From positions 1 through 64,000 of IMG/VR virus record IMGVR_UViG_3300048837_000398: DNA of 64,000 nt, one strand, 5' to 3'. This DNA comes from a virus. The notes beneath the pieces are model-generated. The model searched no databases, was not told the origin of the DNA, and worked only from the letters and a program-made list of their open reading frames with translations. Below, in pieces: positions 3,001 to 58,563 of this stretch. Position 1 is the first letter of the stretch. Each line of letters begins with the position of its first letter. The position numbers were made by a program, and so were the translations under genes.

Positions 3001-6000
3001 TCGCAGCTAACACCCTAGGCGCTGTAGCTCGAGCATTCTCTCAAGAGCGCATTACTTCGATTAAAGACACCACTACGGGCGAGATCTTCCTCGAGAAATC
3101 GCTAGAAGCACAGCAACTGTTGAAGGCTAACAAGGCTACAGATTTCGAGAATCTTATAAAGGGATCTGATCGTTATGTAGTCGAGACACGTGCTACTCCT
3201 AAGTTGCGTCCACCTACTAAAGGTAGAAGCGAACTAGATCTGCGTGTAGACGGGCACAAGCTCTCAGAGTTCAGGCGTAAAGCACTAAACTTAGAGACTG
3301 GCGAAGTTCTGACACACAACGGCTACGACGTCAACATCTTCGAGACTTTCGATACAATCGAGAACTTAGCGATAGACAACGTCAAAGAACAGAAGCTCTT
3401 TATACTTGGCTTCAATAATAACAATGCTAACGCGTTTCTCTCGGCTCTTGCTTTTGGCATACCTCTGAAGAATGTTTCGAAAATATTTAGAACACCATTC
3501 ATCGAAGGACTGTTCTCAGCTGGACGTATTTACGACGACAAGTACACCTATCATTTCGACGATATGATTAACGAGTTGGCAACATCTTTCTTAGAAGATC
3601 GTGGAGCTTTCGAAAAAGGATTGACTCAAGCTACTAACAAGCCTTCGCTATTCAAGTCGATAGAGAATGCGTACAACGCCGGGAACGATCTCAAAGCTAC
3701 TCTTAAAGTAGAGCTGTCTAAAGTACACACGTACTCAGCAATACTCGATGGTGTTTACACAGGCAAGATCACTGGTGTAGCTAAAATGGTTTCAGACTAC
3801 GCAGCTCTAAACAACGTCTTCAAGCTTTCGCAGATCGGGCAACAGCTCTTTAAGCACGCGCAGATCCTGTCGATGTTGAAGCGCTATCCTAACTCTAAGC
3901 ACAAGATAGATGGTGTGCTTAATGCTGTAGACAGCCTCGTAGAGTTCGAAGCTACAGAGCAAATGCACAAGCAGATCTTCAAAGACTACGGCTACAAACT
4001 TCGCGAGCACTTAGCTGCAACCTCTCAAGAGTATATTGAACTAGCTAAGCGCGATCAAGCTGCTGCAGATAGCTACTTAGATAAACTGATGAGAGAGCTT
4101 AAGAACTCAGATCTGTATGCTGCTATGCCTACAAAGCTAGCGAATGCTTCGTTCACTAACGCTCTTCTACGTCGCTCTATCGCTAAGCGCATGGTGCCTA
4201 CTTCGTCTAACATATTCGAAGACAACAATATCTTACGCATGCCGCACGTATTCTCTGCGTATCGTGGACTTGTTCAGCTTAAAGCACTTATCGAGAACAC
4301 GTTTGCTATGCACTATCCAGAAGTACGTGAGTTCGCTGAGCACACCTTAGATCGTTCGCGTCTGTACGTACTTCCGTTCAAGCGCTACCAAACTATCGAG
4401 CGTATCCAAGAGAACTATCTGAACTTCATTTCGTCAGGCATGACTCTCTACTTCGGAGATAACAGCTTCGAGCTCTCGATAAAAGACACTACGATTAACG
4501 AAGAGCAATGGACACAAAGCTTTGTCTCACGCTTTCAAACGATGGCTGCAGAACATCCTAACAACTTAGTGCTCAACTCGACCGAGATTATTACGAGCGA
4601 TGTTGGTGTCAAGAGTTTAGCAATCACTGCTGACAAAGTAAAGAACGAAGAGTCTGTCGAACGTTTACGTGATTCCTTCAGAGAGCTCATGCGAATCGAT
4701 CATGCCTTCGCTCTAGACTGGTTTAAATATGCGCTCATAACTAAGGGCTTGTTCTTCGATCGTACGAGCTTCTCGCTACTCTTTCCTGAATCGTGGGCAG
4801 TTGCATATGGCAAGTCTCTTAATGATCGCTTAGAAACCTTGGTCCCTCGCGACAATCCAGCGTACACACGCCATACGGCTAAGATTTTAGCAGACGAGTT
4901 TCTGTTCCAATATCTGCGGCGTAAACAAGAATCACTTCGTTATGTGAGTGGTATTTCACCTAAAGAAATGAGCGAGTACGTCGACGCTAAAGGCTACACA
5001 AAAAAAGTACTTAGCGGAACAGATGTTTTCGAGGATCGCACTATACATTTTGATCTCAAGTTTTTGACTACAGAAGGCACTCCTGATTTCATCCGTACCT
5101 TTGACAAAGCAGTTTATGCTAAGCACGCAACTTGGGATGGAGCCTCCTACTATCGAAAGATCGCGATGGGCTCTAAAGACAACCTGCTGAAGTTCAACAT
5201 CAACTCTCTACAGACTGGAGCACTTAGCCTCGCCAAGCTACTCGATCCTTCGATCAAAGTCATAGACTCTGCATCGATAGTAGATGGTAAGCTGCGCACA
5301 GGAGAAGCACTAGAGATAGGCACAGAATTCTACATTCACAACATGAACGAAGCTTCTCCTCGCTCTCTAACGAAAGCTAAGGTGACTGCTAGACTAGGAG
5401 ACTTCCACGGACTCTACCAATTTAAATGGAAGAACGAAGGCTCTTATTCGATCACTAATTCAGAACTAATCGAAGCTTCAGCAGCTGATCTTGCTCCTCT
5501 GCAAAGTGCTGATAACGCTAGAGCTGCGATAGTTGGAAACGCTTCAGCTAGCTTACGGGCTGCTAAGAATAGTGCTCGTGAAAATGCGATCGCTCTAGTT
5601 AGACTAGACCAGATGACTGATCCAGCAAAATCCTTAGGGCTCGACATAAAAGATGTGTCTGAACTCTCTGATGAGCTGCTCACTACGTATGTCTTAGATA
5701 TCGAAAAGAAGATAGCGTCTATTCCTAACAACACTCTAGTCTATATTAGCCAAGACTTGCTTACCCCGCTAATGGAGAACAGTCCGTCTATCGCTCAGAG
5801 ATTTGCTCAAGCCATCTTCAACAAGACTAAGTTCGCTCTTCCTATTCTTAACGAGGACGTGCAAGACACTGTTTCAGCTACAGCTAAGCTCATGATTAAG
5901 CGAGCGACTTTCTTAAAAGCTGTCCTGTCTAATCCAGTGCACATGGTGAAAACTGGTGACGCCTGGACGATCGATATCAAAGCTGCTAAGGCTGACGGTT

Positions 6001-11073: not shown

Positions 11074-11149
11074 AACGAGACGTAGGAATCGAACCTACCT
11101 TATCGAGATTTCACCTCGGCGCTATCACCAGATTTAGCAGCTATCTCAA
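11074..11149 (-). tRNA. Degenerate tRNA-Phe(GAA)-like sequence
   Basis: Minus strand: D arm GCTA/TAGC, anticodon arm CGAG-GTGAAAT-CTCG, T arm GTAGG-TTCGATT-CCTAC. The acceptor stem is weak and the element overlaps the end of a CDS. Confidence 0.45.
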
Positions 11150-11504
11150 CTAGTCTCTTACGAACGTAACAATAGACAACAATTTCTTCGAGTGAATTGC
11201 CGATGTCCTCAACGATTAATCGACGAAGGTGCTTCGTTACCCTCTTAAGTGGCCAGTTCTTCCACGAGGTTTTGTGAGTCTCTCTGAATTTTTCATAGCT
11301 TAGCATTACAGACGTAAGAAAAGCTTTGAACGATGGGTCGCTTTGTTTAGCGATGTCCATAATCAATTCGTGCTTAGTCATTCCACGTCGACGCAAGATA
11401 TCTTCATATTCTTCTTGCGAAATCGCTAGCGTTCATAGCGCCTCATCGAGAGTCAGAGGCTGCTTATCGAGGAGCCAACTCCTCGCTTTGCTTAGTAGTT
11501 CCAT
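11100..11504 (-). CDS. Hypothetical protein (one in-frame TGA at 11433-11435)
   Basis: ATG at 11504 gives MELLSKARSW...DEAL*TLAISQEEY, in frame with the 11100-11396 ORF. Confidence 0.65.
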
Positions 11505-50115: not shown

Positions 50116-50198
50116 GGAGAGATGGCAGAGCGGTTTAATGCACTAGTCTTGAAAACTAGCGGTCTCACGATCCCCGAGTTCGAATCTCGGTCTCTCCG
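50116..50198 (+). tRNA. tRNA-Ser(TGA)
   Basis: GGAGAGA/TCTCTCC acceptor, CTAGT-CTTGAAA-ACTAG anticodon arm, variable arm, GTTCGAATC, discriminator G73. Confidence 0.93.
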
Positions 50199-50257
50199 CA
50201 TCACCTGTGTTGGTGCTAAACAGTGTGGTTTAAGTTGTAAAAACTTACCACACACCT

Positions 50258-50343
50258 ACTCTAGTGGCGGAATCGGTAGACGCTATACTAAGCAGCTGAA
50301 GCTAGGCAATTCAGCAGTACAGGTTCGAACCCTGTCTAGAGCA
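50258..50343 (+). tRNA. Leu-like tRNA body with aberrant elongated anticodon arm
   Basis: TGGCGGAATCGGTAGACGC D arm and ACAGG-TTCGAAC-CCTGT T arm. Central arm GCTGAA-GCTAGGCAA-TTCAGC. Confidence 0.55.
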
Positions 50344-51482: not shown

Positions 51483-51845
51483 ATGGAACAACCACTACTT
51501 ACACCGCTAACACTTGAGGTTAGCATCACTAATAAGCATGGCGATAAGATTCGTCACTATTACGAAGAAATGACTGATTCTAATGGCCACCCCATTGAGC
51601 TTCAGATAATGAATAATTTAGACTACATTTGTGAGTCCATAGCTCACTGGCTAAAATTAGATCGCATAGAATTCGAAACGCGCATTCCACCTAATGATAA
51701 CGACGAGTACGTCGTCAACTACAAGAACGAAGACAGAAAGTTCCCTACAGAAACGGTTGTTTTTGCAGACAATCTTACTAACATTAGAGCTGGCATTATC
51801 AAAGGCACACCTTCTATCACAATTCGAAAAAGTTATGCTACGTAG
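51483..51845 (+). CDS. Hypothetical protein
   Basis: ORF in operon context. Confidence 0.55.
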   Translation: MEQPLLTPLTLEVSITNKHGDKIRHYYEEMTDSNGHPIELQIMNNLDYICESIAHWLKLDRIEFETRIPPNDNDEYVVNYKNEDRKFPTETVVFADNLTNIRAGIIKGTPSITIRKSYAT

Positions 51846-51867: not shown

Positions 51868-51963
51868 GGGGGTGCTTCACTGTTGCAGAACAGGACTAGT
51901 CTTCAAAACTAGACGACTGGGGTCCAAACTCAGTTTATTCGGGTGCAAGTCCTGACACCCTCG
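51868..51963 (+). tRNA. Opal (UGA)-decoding tRNA, anticodon TCA, Ser/Sec-like body
   Basis: Acceptor GGGGGTG/CACCCTC plus G73; D stem CTGTT-GCAG-AACAG; CTAGT-CTTCAAA-ACTAG (TCA at 51903-51905); long variable arm; T arm TCGGG-TGCAAGT-CCTGA. Confidence 0.85.
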
Positions 51964-51978
51964 CAAAATTCAACAACT

Positions 51979-52221
51979 ATGAACTGTCTAGAATTCGCTC
52001 TTAACGAGTGGCAGAATAATCCTAACGTCATTATTCTTTACGATGCAGACCACGTAGTATGTATTACAGACAAGTGCTACGACCAAAACGGGCCTTGCGC
52101 ATACTTCTTAGATCCTACGAAATATCTTCCACTTAAAGAATATGGTCTAAGACATCTACTCAGCTCTTTCGACTTAACTACACACTATTCGAACATTTTA
52201 AAAGCTTACCTAAATCAATAA
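51979..52221 (+). CDS. Hypothetical protein
   Basis: ATG after the tRNA (MNCLEFAL). Confidence 0.55.
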   Translation: MNCLEFALNEWQNNPNVIILYDADHVVCITDKCYDQNGPCAYFLDPTKYLPLKEYGLRHLLSSFDLTTHYSNILKAYLNQ

Positions 52222-52415: not shown

Positions 52416-52660
52416 CAGCCAACCTATCGTTTCTAGACAACGAAGTACTGCTCTATCACTCGACACTCCAACTAGAGAGTGTGAAAGATGTCGACAAAGC
52501 GCTAGACGCAGAGCTCTCAAACTTAAAGATGGCGATATTCGCTCACATCTACAAAAACCGTCCTTCAGAGTGGCACGAACCAACGCCGCTTCCTAACACA
52601 AACTTACTCAATGACAAAGAAAGTTATTACAGGCCCATCACTCCAGACGTCACTACTTAA
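52409..52660 (+). CDS. Hypothetical protein
   Basis: ORF in operon context. Confidence 0.5.
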
Positions 52661-55202
52661 TGGCGTAAATACTATTGCTAATGCAGTAGGATCAACTCTT
52701 GGCCCACTAGGCCGTAACGTAGTTATCGAAACTCCGTATGGCGCAACAACTGTTACTAAAGATGGTGTTACAGTTGCTCAACAAATTACTCTCGAAGATC
52801 CTCTCGAGAACTTAGCTGTTCAAATTATTAAGCAGGCATCAGAGCGCACAGCTTCTATAGCTGGCGACGGACCACAGCCCCTTTATTCGAAAGTTCTCAC
52901 ACCAACTGGGTGGACAACTCTAGGTGAACTAAAAGTTGGAGATACCATTTGTGGTACAAATGGTACTACACAAAAGGTCGTAGGCTTTTACCCTAAAGGA
53001 CCCTTACCTTTATATAAGGTTATTTTTTCGGACGGAAGAACAGTTGAATGTTCGGAAGACCACTTGTGGACCGTGACCACTAATTACGGAAAACAAAAAA
53101 CTCTGCCTCTAAGTGAGCTTATAAATCAAGGTTTGTCGTTAATTAACGACGACGGCCACAATAAGTACAAGTTTTTTGTTCAAACTACTGAAGTAGAATT
53201 TGATGAAAAACCCCTCCCCTTAGATCCTTACTTTCTAGGAGTATTGCTTGGAGATGGTTCCCTAAGTGGAAGTGGTGCAATTGAGCTCTCGTTAGGCCTC
53301 AAGAAGGCACACATACTACAAAAGCTTCTTTTGCCAGAAGGCATGAGTTTTACGATCGCTTTAGATGAATCTAAAAATTATATTAGAGTTAGATTTCAAG
53401 GTGCTGATAAAAATGGGAAAAATCTAAAAGACATTCTTTTAGATTTAAATTTGCTCGGAACACATAGCGCTACAAAATTTATTCCGGACCTATACCTCTA
53501 TTCGAGCTTAAAATCTCGCGAAGCCCTTTTACAGGGTCTCGTAGACACTGATGGCCATGTTAATCTTCGTGGCAAATTCGAGTTTAGTACTATAAGCGAC
53601 CAACTATCTGCCAACTTTCAAGATTTGGTACGCTCACTGGGCATTCAGACGCACTACACAAAGTTAGACCGAACATATTCTGGCGGATATTCTGTAAACC
53701 CAGTCCATCGGATAGTAGAATTAAAAGGGTACAAACACGGCATCAAAATAGTAGATGTTCAACCTCAAAACAGATTTGAGGAGATGGTCTGTATTAAAGT
53801 TTCAAACGATGACCATTTGTACATCACAGATGAATATGTCGTCACACATAATACAACTACTGCAACAGTACTCGCGCAAAAGCTTTATTCCGAAGCACTT
53901 AAACTAGTTAACTCGGGTGTCGCCCCTATCCACATCAAGAACGATTACGAAGCCTACTTAAAAGCTATCGCCCCTCTTATCGACGATAATACGCTCCAGA
54001 TTACGACGCCTCAAGACACGTACCAGATCGCACTTATTTCTGCGAATAACGATCCGACTATTGCATCTCTTATTTCGACAGCTATCGAATACGTAGGCAA
54101 GGATGGCTCGATTACACTCGAAGAGTCTAAGACTGGCGAGTCGTATGTAGAGCTAGTAGACGGTACTTCTTTCGAGCGCCCTTACGCTTCTCCGTACTTC
54201 GTCACTAATCCGCCTAAAGGGACAGCTGAACTCACCAATCCGCTCATCTTTATTACGGATAAGAAACTTCGCTACAATCAAGAGCTTCTTCCCGTACTCA
54301 ACTTAGCAGCCGATAACTCACGTCCACTAGTTATTATTGCAGACGATATCGAAGGTCAAGCTCTTCAGACGCTCGTCATCAACAAGCTTCGCGGTACTAT
54401 CGAGGTGCTAGCTATCAGAGCTCCTTCGTACGGTGAGAACCGTCTCGAAGTACTTAAAGACCTCGCAGCCCTCACTTCAGCGAACCTTATTACAGAGCTC
54501 TCTGGAACACGTATCGAAGATGTTAAGCTCACTGATTTAGGTGAAGCGGCTAAAGTGATTTCTTCGCGTCACCAAACTATCATTGTTGATGGTGTTCAAG
54601 ATCCCACCCAAATCGAAGCTCGTGCGAGTACAATCACACAGCTTCTCGCTCAACATCAGCCAGACTCATATTTCTATAAGCAGCTCTCTACTCGACTAGC
54701 TAAGCTCACTGCTAAGGTTGCAGTGCTCAATGTAGGAGCACCTACAGAAACCGAGCTTAAAGAGCGCAAAGCCCGTGTTGACGACGCACTTCGAGCTACT
54801 ACAGCAGCTATTAAAACTGGTTTCGTAGTTGGTGGCGGTACGCTTCTCGCTAAGCTCTCGACTACCCTCCCTAACGATCTTTCGTCTAAAGCCTTCGCAC
54901 TAGCTCTTCAAGAACCTCTTCGTCGAATAGCTGAAAATGCTGGACAATCTCCGTCTCTCGTCCTTTCAAAAGTACTTGAGAACCCTTCGATTTCATTCGG
55001 TTATAACGCTTTAACTGACTCCTATACAGATCTTATCGAAGACAAGGTTATCGATCCTGCACTCGTAGTGAAGCAAGCGCTACTCTCCGCAGTTTCAGCA
55101 GCAAACATGCTCATCCTATCTTCGACTGCAGTCTACAATGTAGATCGCACTCCTCCTTATTCTCCAGGCTCTCTAAATGATTTTGAATCGCACGAATCCT
55201 AA
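52611..55202 (+). CDS. groEL: GroEL chaperonin precursor containing an intein (536 aa after splicing)
   Basis: [37 protein letters not shown] and VIDPALV motifs. Confidence 0.95.
52872..53852 (+). mobile_element. Class 3 intein with LAGLIDADG endonuclease in GroEL (327 aa)
   Basis: Starts [17 protein letters not shown] triad: EDHLW, MVCIKV, VVTHN/T. Endonuclease motifs GVLLGDG and GLVDTDG. Confidence 0.9.
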
Positions 55203-58200
55203 CGACTTCATAGTCGAGATTCCGCAGCATCATCCGCTTTCTTCAGCATATTTATCGTTCTGACGCGAGCAAAAAAGACGTTCAATAGAAGGTTATTGGG
55301 TAGGTGGCATTTGAATGCCTCCTGCCCTTTACTATTATGCGAACTTCGGAACAATCAAGAAGAACCGCTCTAAGTATTCAGCTTCCTCCAAGATCTATGC
55401 GCGGCCTGACTTACGAGACATCGAATGGGATCTATTCTATCTCTATACAGAAGCGCGAGGATTCTCAGGATTTTCTCTCGACCCCGTCTACTCCTCTAAC
55501 AAAGCTCTACTTGACGCAGAAGTAACTGACGATATTCTTCGACTTCACCTGCCATCTACACTCAAGGCTGACGGATCTCGCAAAACATTCGTTCCAGCTC
55601 GCGAGTATATGCGCGCTCTACACCCTACCCAACTAGGCGCACCTCTTTTCGAAAATGAAAAGCAGAACCTTCTTCTTCTCGGTACTCGAGATCTCGGCAA
55701 GTCGTATGCTGTAGGTGTAGGCATGGTTGGCCACATGTTCCTTTTCGATGGCGCAACTTCTTATTCAGAGTCTCGCGAAGAGCTCTCTCCAGCTGAAGTT
55801 CTTGTAGGAGCATCTGTTTCAGACAAATCTCGAGATCTACTTAAAAAAACAAAAGACTCGTTCGATTTCTTACCGGGCAAGCAAATCATCGCCTCACGCA
55901 CTTACCCTTCTCCTTTCTCTAAACAGTACACAGGCTCGTGAGCAGTTAATGCTGATATCAAGGCCGAATATAAAAAGAAGTCTGATGGGCGATGGGAGAC
56001 AGTGGGCTCCCGCTCTACGATTAAGCATCGCTCTTTCAACGAAAACCCGTTTGCTGCACAAGGTACTCGCCCTGACTTACTTGTCATCGAGGAAGCTGGT
56101 CTAGCTTCAGAGCTCAAAGACATCTTCGTGCACACTGTCGACACACTGCGTCGAGGTCTAACTAAGACTGGGACATTGCTTTGCTTGGGTTGTGTCGTAG
56201 CTGGCACTAAAGTTTGAACATCTAAAGGTAAACTTCTAAACGTCGAAGATCTTACCGTAGAAGATGGAATCTTAGGTTACTCTGGATCAGCAATTGTACC
56301 TCTACCAATCACTAACATTAACCCAATCGCAGTAAAACAGTGTGTCAGAATTACGACCGAAGGTAACAACGTTATCGAAGCCTCTATAGACCACCCATTT
56401 TTAGCCTCTTCTCGTAAAGAACGGCTTTCTAACACAACGTACAATTATAATTTCAAGCAAGCCGCTACACTAAACGTAGGTGATTACTTAGCGCTAGCTA
56501 ACGAAATCCCGTTTTTTGGAGAAGTCGAGGAAAAAGACGCTTACTTAATAGGGCTGATGCTCGGTGACGGCTACTTTAAAGGCTCGTCAGTTTCGATCGA
56601 TAACGACGAAGTCTACAACTTTATTTCGACTAACTACGAAACGTCTACACACAAAAGGTACGAAACTAAAAAAGGGACGCTGTACTACGAGCTCTACATA
56701 AAAGGGATTAGTCAAAAGCTAAAAACTCTAGGGCTAACGGATCTTACTAAAGAACAAAAAGATTTTCCGCTTACAGCACAAGAATTTTCGAAAGAGTCTT
56801 TAGCACTTCTGCTAGCAGGTTGCTTCGACTCAGATGGAAATGTCAATAGGTCTAAAAAGACAACACGTGTTGTTCTAACTAATATTTCGTTAAAACTACT
56901 TCAATCGGTTAAATGGGCCCTTTTAAAATTTGGCATCCATTCTTCGATCTACAAAGAGAAACGAAACACGAAGCCCCCTAAAGGCTACGAAAATCAGCTA
57001 CCGCATATTTACAGACTCTACATTTCTAGAGACGCAGACGTCGCCACGTTTAAGCAGTACATTCCAATTAAGCATTCTAAAAAAGTCGAAACTCTAGGCC
57101 AATTTACTCCAGGTAATCGTCAAGTTGGAAAACACTTAGGAGTCTTCACACTTACAAACCGCCATGAAGACGAAACATTCTTAGCCGATAACTCGTCGAT
57201 TTCTAACTTTAGATTCGTACGCGTGACTTCTGTCGAGGCAATTGGTGAAAAAGAAATCTACAACCTAACTGCAGGAGAATATCATAACTATCTAGCCAAT
57301 GGCTTCATCACCCATAACACAGGTGGAGACATGCAGAAGGGCACGCTCGCAGCTTCCGAAATGTTTTACGAGCCCGAGAAATACGACTTCCTTTCTTTCG
57401 AAGATACTTACGAGTCTCGAGGCAAGATAGCATATTTTGTGCCCGCCTACTATTCTCTCGATAAGTTTCGAGACGATTGGGGTTACGTAGACATTCAAAA
57501 AGCTACAGAAAGCCTACTGCTTAAACGCAAGAAACTAGCTGGTGATTCTGGAGGTTCGTTCGCTCTCGACCAAGAGATGCAGTATCGTCCTCTCGTACCT
57601 TCCGAGATGTTTCTTTCGAAAGCAGCTAACATATTCCCGTTCGCAGAAATACGCCGCCGTCTCTCAGAACTACAGACTACGAAAGAATACGAAATGTACG
57701 AGCACAAGGTCAACCTATATTTTGACCCTTCTTCACAGTATAATGGTGTGTCGTACGCTATCGACCCCTCGCTAAATCCGATCACACGTTTCCCGTGAGA
57801 CTCTGACGACAGAGAAGGTGCAGTAGTTATCTACGACTTCCCGCACTTAGAAGATGGTAAAGTGCCTCCTGGCGCTTATATCATAGGATGCGACCCTTTT
57901 AAAGATGATTCACCTGACGGGCCCTCACTCGCCGCTGTCTACGTCATGAAGACGTCTAAGTACTTTGCGACGATAGGCCACGACGAAATAGTAGCATCTT
58001 ACATAGGTCGTCCATACATGGGTAAGAATGCTGTCAACGAGATCCTGCATAAACTAGCGCTCTTCTACAACGCTAAAATTTACTTCGAAAATTCTGTCGG
58101 CAACGTAAAAGACTACTTCGAAAAAGTTCGACGCCTCGACCTACTCGCTACGCAGCCAACTACAATTTTCAACAAAAAAGCTTCGTTCCTTTCGAATCAA

Positions 58201-58563
58201 TCGTTCATCTATGGCTACCCCATGCCAAACCAAAAAGTTAAGTGGGAAGCTCTGCAGTATCTACGAGCTTGGCTACTTACAGAACGTTCAGACTCTAAAA
58301 GAAACTTAGACCTCATCAAAGATCCAGCCCTTCTTCAAGAACTTATTTCGTTTAACCTCGACGGAAACTTCGACAGAGTCATGGGCCTCACTGGCTGCAT
58401 AATAGGGCTCGAAGAAATATATAACCTACAAAGACGCACCGAGCATTATCAAAAAGAATCTTCGGAGCTAGACAAAGAATTTACTAGACTTATTGTCAAC
58501 AACAAAAAACTTTTCCATGAAAATTTTTCCAAAACAAAGGCTAGCGTACTCTGAGAAAATTAA
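55177..58563 (+). CDS. terL: Terminase large subunit precursor (intein; 6 in-frame TGA)
   Basis: YLSF*REQKRRSIEGY...I*MPPALYYYANF; GTRDLGKS; LVIEEAG; G/TGGDM; GCDPF; GNFDRV. TGAs at 55261, 55312, 55939, 56215, 57796 and 58552. Confidence 0.92.
56191..57318 (+). mobile_element. Class 1 intein with LAGLIDADG endonuclease in TerL (376 aa)
   Basis: Starts CVVAGTKV*T; SIDHPF; GLMLGDG and GCFDSDG; ends YNL...ITHN/T. Confidence 0.92.

Follow-up and report, generated by a model that had tools for sequence, protein, structure and literature searches.

Mycoplasma and mitochondrial tRNA-Trp(UCA) molecules, which read UGA as tryptophan, are short class I tRNAs charged by a tryptophanyl-tRNA synthetase (TrpRS) of their own that is adapted to U34. 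Phages that read UGA as tryptophan and infect hosts with the standard code need a UCA tRNA that is charged by a host enzyme that normally reads CCA. Such code 4 recoded phages have been reported by Borges et al. (10.1101/2021.08.26.457843) and, for crAss-like phages, by Yutin et al. (PMC7886860). According to the former report, a suppressor tRNA was detectable in only about 35% of the TGA-recoded genomes, and the charging of phage suppressors by host synthetases was posed as an open question. The present study concerns a tRNA gene with a UCA anticodon (hereafter the UCA tRNA) at positions 51868-51963 of the window, i.e. the first 64 kb of the virus record IMGVR_UViG_3300048837_000398, whose genome is complete at 103,011 bp and has 127-bp direct terminal repeats. 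The UCA tRNA is probably a phage opal suppressor, which is a known kind of molecule, and it is new in its CCA-bearing extra arm, its Sec-like D arm, its aberrant T loop and its crAss-like carrier. We put at roughly 0.6 the probability that it is a phage opal suppressor charged with tryptophan by the host TrpRS, for which the extra arm would act as a pseudo-anticodon handle. Judged from sequence, phage UCA tRNAs with two anticodon-type hairpins form a widespread class, and the present tRNA is one of them.

As in the code 4 phages described by Borges et al. and Yutin et al., the UCA tRNA is a phage gene with a UCA anticodon, in-frame TGA codons are found at tryptophan positions, a TrpRS is missing from the phage, its host keeps to the standard code, and early genes seem to have retained TGA as a stop. 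It differs from the suppressors reported there in being of a kind that detectors miss and in possessing a second, CCA-bearing hairpin, which does not feature in the accessible portions of these two reports. With the Mycoplasma and mitochondrial tRNAs it would share the reading of UGA as tryptophan, and it shares the UCA anticodon and Trp-type acceptor features, whereas the extra CCA arm and the reliance on a synthetase of a standard-code host set it apart. A UCA anticodon and G73 also occur together with a long variable arm and a small loop on a long D stem in the selenocysteine tRNA (tRNA-Sec) and in the allo- and selC* tRNAs (Mukai et al. 2017, PMC5389517; Krahn et al. 2020, PMC7609411). Unlike these, which have an acceptor/T layout of 8/5, 8/4 or 9/3, the UCA tRNA has a 7/5 layout, a copy of the tRNA-Trp anticodon in its arm loop, tryptophan codons as its predicted sites and a phage genome without SelA or SelB.

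Synthetic work in 2020 produced an anticodon-arm mimic in the variable position: a His pseudo-anticodon placed on the variable arm of an allo-tRNA modestly enhanced charging by variants of histidyl-tRNA synthetase with an extra anticodon-binding domain (Mukai 2020, PMC7590224). In contrast to that design, the hairpin described here is natural and Trp-specific, and is presumably used by an unmodified host TrpRS. Hairpins that mimic an anticodon loop and are bound by the cognate synthetase are also known from the thrS operator and from viral tRNA-like structures (PMC9976931). These are parts of mRNAs or viral genomes and serve regulation or 3'-end aminoacylation, whereas the second arm described here lies inside a decoding tRNA. 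No natural tRNA of such a design is described in the accessible parts of the literature on suppressor tRNAs, variable arms, pseudo- or second anticodons and phage TGA recoding, and the natural case is, as far as we know, new to that literature.

With regard to the carrier, the portal, major head protein, DNA polymerase, primase and helicase all gave phage-family matches. The top matches of the portal were crAss-like phages, with an identity of at most 31%, which places the phage, on sequence grounds, as a divergent environmental crAss-like member. Reading TGA as a sense codon restored broken genes: the DNA polymerase and portal genes each contain one TGA inside the frame, the helicase and primase genes two each, the exonuclease gene three and the large terminase gene (TerL) five internal ones. 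Many of the genes at approximately 30-46 kb seem to stop at TGA.

The in-frame TGA sites of the terminase correspond to tryptophan, tyrosine or phenylalanine in homologs. In an alignment to 76 TerL homologs, site 29 is tryptophan in 68 of 69 sequences, site 46 is tryptophan in 36, tyrosine in 28 and phenylalanine in six, and site 255 is tryptophan in 50 of the 76. Of 80 relatives, all 80 have a tryptophan codon, either TGG or TGA, at W29 of TerL, and in the DNA polymerase the TGA site is tryptophan in 10 of 10. When 15 TGA sites from seven genes were compared with related loci, the aligned residues were tryptophan in 311 cases (272 as TGG and 39 as TGA), tyrosine in 86, phenylalanine in 37 and leucine in 33, and no serine, glycine or cysteine was present among the approximately 490 residues. 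The impression of the first-pass annotation, which had been made from the window alone, that the TGA sites look like tryptophan sites is thereby upheld.

These alignments also bear on another option of that annotation, namely recognition of the long variable arm and of G73 by seryl-tRNA synthetase (SerRS), which would then charge the tRNA and make UGA stand for serine at former tryptophan positions. Both features are present, a C11-G24 pair is possible in the D stem, and SerRS is known to respond to how large the arm is, not to its sequence, and to ignore the anticodon (PMC9976931; PMC7609411). Nevertheless, we regard this option as very unlikely. Besides the lack of serine at the aligned sites, including W29 and the DNA polymerase site, TGG falls while TGA rises in heavily recoded carriers of similar tRNAs. 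Furthermore, the arm of the UCA tRNA (7 bp, 7-nt loop, 3' spacer of 3 nt) is laid out unlike that of the phage's own tRNA-Ser (about 4 bp, 4-nt loop, spacer of 1 nt), and a conserved loop sequence would not be expected if recognition were by SerRS.

The UCA tRNA gene lies in the gap between the open reading frames (ORFs) 51483-51845 and 51979-52221, and its parts are listed in Table 1. It was first described as a 96-nt tRNA with a TCA anticodon, a long variable arm, G73 and a long D stem with a 4-nt loop, all of which are indeed present. D stems of similar length are found in the relatives L242, L018, L047, L121, L151 and L189. The minimum-energy fold, at -34.2 kcal/mol (z = -2.7), forms a cloverleaf with the extra arm. 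Its anticodon stem is shifted into a 4-bp register, which was rejected given that the canonical register covaries across relatives. The tRNA keeps G73, C35 and A36 of tryptophan identity, and it departs from canonical bacterial tRNA-Trp in its UCA anticodon, its variable region of 26 nt and its G1-C72 pair.

The most significant feature, which was overlooked in the first reading, is the loop of the variable arm. Its sequence, GUCCAAA (GTCCAAA in the DNA), is a copy of the anticodon loop of tRNA-Trp, CUCCAAA, with which it agrees at six of the seven positions. The arm is a hairpin in the variable position with a stem in the range of 5-7 bp and a 7-nt loop of the form N-U-C-C-A-A-A, which is the form that defines the class described below. 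The description of the body as Ser/Sec-like consequently holds for the long D stem and fails for the variable arm, whose 7-bp stem and Trp-type 7-nt loop are unlike those of tRNA-Ser. It had also been remarked that the anticodon arm is one base away from that of the phage's tRNA-Ser(UGA). This is correct, but the likeness does not appear to be diagnostic, because the arm of an ordinary tRNA-Trp(CCA) in the related locus L113, CTAGT-CTCCAAA-ACTAG, is also one base (C34 to U) away from it.

Standard tools do not recognize the gene. ARAGORN, even with relaxed settings, called only the tRNA-Ser and left the UCA tRNA uncalled. The best Rfam match was tRNA-Sec (RF01852), though at 26.8 bits against a cut-off of 47, i.e. 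below the curated threshold, and the Rfam tRNA model gave no match. The rank of this match, together with the UCA anticodon, the long D stem with a 4-nt loop, the lengthy variable arm plus G73, would agree with a selenocysteine tRNA. However, this identity has hardly any probability left, and it is refuted as far as sequence analysis goes. In addition to the low score, the layout is 7/5 rather than 8/5, as can be deduced from the close homolog L242, in which the 3'-terminal CCA is encoded directly after G73, and the 13-bp acceptor/T branch is not formed. SelA and SelB are absent from the phage genome, the TGAs occupy tryptophan positions across many genes with no selenoprotein context seen, and the true tRNA-Sec genes found in our scan have arms of 8-9 bp with loops of 3-5 nt.

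A covariance model (R2), from the building of which the window, L242 and L033 were left out, scored the UCA tRNA at 54.9 bits over its full length (E-value of approximately 3e-13), and its runner-up match in the window was the tRNA-Ser, at 34 bits. By the measure of this model, the RNA is confirmed as a real member of the tRNA family, beyond chance. A decaying or non-translational tRNA-like element, with the UGAs read by the host tRNA-Trp(CCA) through near-cognate readthrough or by other means, could explain the failure of ARAGORN and Rfam, the G at position 55 in the T loop and the lack of GG in the D loop. We judge it very improbable, given the score of the leave-out model, the odd T loop that is common to the window and L033, the compensatory change in an arm stem of the latter, the clean intergenic gap and the syntenic position in relatives. 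Moreover, essential genes with up to five in-frame TGAs each would hardly be served by readthrough alone.

The complete genome contains no second UCA tRNA, as judged by the Rfam tRNA and tRNA-Sec models, ARAGORN, and a scan for a UCA hairpin followed by a T loop. The earlier statement that this is the only UGA-reading tRNA of the window can therefore be extended to the whole genome, and the proposal that another tRNA outside the window does the decoding is refuted; a conventional tRNA-Trp(UCA) elsewhere in the genome, which would have spoken against the role of the UCA tRNA, was looked for and not found. Similarly, the absence of TrpRS, release factor, selA and selB genes holds beyond the window, as no TrpRS-type synthetase, class I release factor, SelA or SelB is encoded in the complete phage genome. 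An exact search of viral contigs with the anticodon arm gave no match, and blastn against GenBank phages gave only an unrelated 106-nt match. A scan for promoters and terminators around the gene performed no better than on shuffled sequences. Expression, processing and CCA addition are presumed to take place.

The design is not confined to this phage. When viral contigs were scanned with a UCA anticodon loop, a long gap and a T loop as the sole requirements and the arm loop left unconstrained, 38 distinct long UCA tRNAs were identified, comprising 24 with TCCAA in the arm, L242 with TCCAT, and 13 ordinary tRNA-Sec types, which are free of the motif. With all fetched loci pooled, 30 distinct phage UCA tRNAs were found to share the design. 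The arm loop is GUCCAAA in 13 of them, CUCCAAA in nine and UUCCAAA in three, the rest being single variants. Its U-C-C-A is invariant in 30/30, and 27 distinct arm stems carry it. G73 is present in 29 members and A1-U72 in 19. All five arm pairs next to the loop have changed on both sides across the 30 members, the anticodon helix covaries as well (96.7% of cells paired), and the three helices together have a covariation score of 0.736 versus 0.21 in shuffled alignments, none of the 500 shuffles reaching as high a value.

The arm loops resemble the anticodon loops of ordinary tRNA-Trp. In the same loci, CUCCAAA is the anticodon loop of 31 of the 39 ordinary phage tRNA-Trp(CCA) genes, the remaining loops include UUCCAAA and UUCCAAC, and the end of the stem is mostly GGU/ACC; the arm loops show a like spectrum. 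The motif is also specific to tRNAs with a UCA anticodon, since TCCAA occurs in the variable region of 30 of 45 long UCA tRNAs versus about three of 217 long tRNAs with other anticodons (0/26 for Ser(UGA), 0/29 for Leu(UAA), 0/22 for Tyr, 0/18 for Leu(UAG) and 1/31 for Ser(GCU)). As a small negative control, the long tRNA-Arg(UCU) genes caught by an amber-suppressor pattern contain no TCCAA loop. Phage genes for tRNA-Arg(UCU) of 86-94 nt with long variable regions, an unusual length for tRNA-Arg, were observed in L444, L445, L448, L459, L464, L505, L507 and L539, in each case without a TCCAA loop. The bodies on which the CCA-arm design is found differ, and include Trp-like ones, ones with class-II-like D arms and ones with Sec-like long D stems, such as that of the window.

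Among the 120 matches listed for genome contigs, two were UCA tRNAs, one of which is of the CCA-arm type and lies on a 6.6-kb contig of a metagenome-assembled genome. The other, caught by a scan that required a TCCAA-type motif, is a true 8/5 tRNA-Sec of Skermanella stibiiresistens (L361:914-1006, minus strand) with the arm loop UCCAAAA. Because of this tRNA-Sec, the UCCAA motif alone, without a Trp-type context, is not considered diagnostic on sequence grounds. In six loci (L113, L193, L243, L271, L278 and L290), a UCA tRNA with a CCA arm was found together with an ordinary tRNA-Trp(CCA), and CUCCAAA is present in both loops in all six. An origin of the CCA arm as a recent duplicate of the UCA arm, or through gene conversion, was unsupported, as stem identity was 4.03 of 10 within the same tRNA versus 4.00 between tRNAs (permutation, p = 0.48).

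The loci that carry such tRNAs are often strongly TGA-recoded. Many carrier loci gain open frames only if TGA is read as sense; in L245 the open-frame coverage rises from 0.19 to 0.79, with no gain when TAG is read as sense instead. Carriers of tRNA-Sec show no gain under TGA as sense. Where TGA is common in strongly recoded carriers, there is a depletion of TGG. No TrpRS was found in any of the 34 carrier or sister records, seven of which are at least 90% complete.

Closer relatives were examined in 80 related viral loci retrieved through terminase alignment. In the closer TerL clade, UCA tRNAs lie 2.4-5.3 kb upstream of the terminase gene and occur either in a short form of 71-77 nt without the arm (L009, L010/L052, L025 and L028) or in a long form of 93-100 nt (the L015 group, L035, L018/L020 and L047). 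Every long form from this clade has UCCAA in the loop of the extra arm, on stems that differ. A quick terminase tree pairs the window with L009, which has a short tRNA, with 100% support, which suggests from sequence relationships that the short and the CCA-arm forms are exchanged within one terminase clade.

The ortholog in L033 is 97% and 90% identical to the UCA tRNA of the window in two pieces, has the same odd T loop, and carries a compensatory A-U to G-C change in the stem of the extra arm. A group I intron (L033:4691-5408; RF00028, 50 bits) interrupts the anticodon loop of this ortholog and in turn carries an ORF for an HNH endonuclease (4883-5401). The compensatory stem change and the intron in the anticodon loop point to selection on the UCA tRNA gene. 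The close homolog L242 has a normal T loop and the arm loop GTCCATA. A more distant homolog (L056:5197-5331) has a long D stem, a UCA anticodon and the T loop GTCGGCA, together with a variable region of about 60 nt.

The observed features can be combined into a mechanism in which decoding and identity would be divided between two arms. The UCA arm would decode the in-frame UGAs of replication and virion genes, while the extra arm would display the copy of the tRNA-Trp anticodon loop (N-U-C-C-A-A-A) on its stem of 5-7 bp. Given that the phage has no TrpRS of its own, the host TrpRS would have to charge the tRNA. Bacterial tryptophan identity is composed of G73, C34, C35, A36 and the 1-72 pair (PMC9976931), and the change of C34 to U, which is required for the decoding of UGA, would remove one of the major identity bases. 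In combination with G73, C35 and A36, the spare CCA hairpin could restore or strengthen recognition by the host TrpRS, resulting in the insertion of tryptophan at UGA. We infer both the charging with tryptophan and the role of the extra arm as a TrpRS handle from these sequence features. In the first-pass annotation, charging of an unusual scaffold by TrpRS had been one of several options; it is now the best supported of them and likely, given the tryptophan or aromatic nature of the TGA sites, the presence of G73, C35 and A36, and the CCA loop in the arm. If true, the spare CCA hairpin would be a simple answer to the question of how host synthetases charge phage suppressors. CCA-arm UCA tRNAs may also find use as parts in the engineering of genetic codes.

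Several points weigh against a handle function. Sister phages carry short UCA tRNAs without the arm, including L009, the well-supported partner of the window. In a published report, 13 phage UCA tRNAs inserted tryptophan in an E. coli extract, and ordinary phage UCA tRNAs are thus already charged with tryptophan there (PMC12636597). For these two reasons, the arm would be at most an enhancer or a host-specific requirement. The UCA tRNA of the window has G1-C72 and not the A1-U72 of bacterial tRNA-Trp that most members of the class retain, and the variable region of L056 contains no CCA. The lack of GG in the D loop and the G55 in the T loop may give rise to an unusual fold, and the model assumes that a hairpin in the variable position is within reach of TrpRS when the active site of the enzyme is occupied by the acceptor end. 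Finally, a long variable arm and G73 are features read by SerRS, and some mischarging with serine may occur.

The armless tRNAs of the sister phages, the charging in E. coli extract and the assumed binding geometry would all be accommodated if the UCA tRNA inserted tryptophan but were charged through C35, A36 and G73 alone, with no contribution of the CCA hairpin to TrpRS recognition. In that case, a modification enzyme that recognizes A36-A37-A38 loops could act on the loop, the loop could lure away an anticodon nuclease or another host factor directed against tRNA-Trp, or it could make a contact of a structural kind or with the ribosome. We consider this explanation, with these roles taken together, a serious but rather unlikely alternative. 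However, the hairpin copies the full 7-nt loop and the closing pairs of the Trp anticodon arm, the motif is limited to UCA tRNAs, which are precisely those that lost C34, and its presence on several tRNA bodies points to selection for tryptophan identity itself. No carrier has a TrpRS of its own, which also favours a handle for the host enzyme over these other roles.

Further functions of the two hairpins are conceivable and highly improbable. The UCA tRNA might be a two-headed adaptor that decodes both UGA and UGG by alternative stacking of its hairpins on the D arm, or the CCA hairpin might act in trans on host sensors of tRNA-Trp, through titration of TrpRS, attenuators or anticodon nucleases, and so rewire Trp decoding in the host.

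A tRNA that is invisible to ARAGORN and falls below the Rfam cut-offs shows why suppressors go missed, and suppressor tRNAs that are hidden in the genomes of recoded phages could be recovered with the covariance models of this study. Table 1 gives the positions of the parts of the UCA tRNA and of the other features of the window referred to in the text.

Table 1. Parts of the UCA tRNA and other features of the window (positions in the 64-kb window).
Feature	Position	Strand	Description
UCA tRNA, acceptor stem, 5' strand	51868-51874	+	GGGGGTG; pairs with 51956-51962; G1-C72, G2.U71
UCA tRNA, D arm	51877-51895	+	core CTGTT/AACAG of 5 bp, 7 bp with a bulged A; 4-nt loop GCAG without the usual GG
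UCA tRNA, anticodon arm	51896-51912	+	CTAGT-CTTCAAA-ACTAG; UCA anticodon at 51903-51905, reads UGA
UCA tRNA, extra (variable) arm	51915-51935	+	GACTGGG-GTCCAAA-CTCAGTT; CCA at 51924-51926; interpreted as a pseudo-anticodon arm
UCA tRNA, T arm	51939-51955	+	TCGGG-TGCAAGT-CCTGA; aberrant T loop, G at position 55 instead of U; common to the L033 ortholog
UCA tRNA, acceptor stem, 3' strand, and discriminator	51956-51963	+	CACCCTC and G73; G73 at 51963; CCA not encoded
Ordinary phage tRNA-Ser(UGA), for comparison	50116-50199	+	short variable arm of about 4 bp, 4-nt loop, 1-nt spacer; anticodon arm at 50142-50158
Large terminase gene (TerL), with intein	55177-58563	+	TGAs in frame at 55261, 55312, 55939, 56215 and 57796; example of a proposed client of the UCA tRNA
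GroEL-like gene, with intein	52611-55202	+	
Non-canonical tRNA gene beside the tRNA-Ser	50258-50343	+	Rfam tRNA 32.3 bits; missed by ARAGORN
tRNA-like element	11074-11159	-	Rfam tRNA 28.6 bits (cut-off 29); 20 bits with the family model

With regard to the other tRNA-like elements, the non-canonical gene beside the tRNA-Ser combines a good T arm with a D arm like that of tRNA-Leu and shows an A1.C72 mismatch. It lacks a normal anticodon arm, in place of which come 11 nt and then a hairpin, GCTGAA-GCTAGGCAA-TTCAGC, whose loop is 9 nt long. The element on the minus strand has an acceptor stem and a canonical T arm (GTAGGTTCGATTCCTAC) around an odd middle. ARAGORN found no transfer-messenger RNA (tmRNA) in the complete genome; in L033, a weak match to the Rfam tmRNA model (18.6 bits, cut-off 47) lies just upstream of the UCA tRNA, at 4500-4566. 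Two inteins were observed, one in the GroEL-like gene and one in the large terminase gene. Intein-free terminase homologs align over residues 1-338 and 715-1128 of the latter, and insert-bearing homologs have LAGLIDADG or intein Pfam domains.

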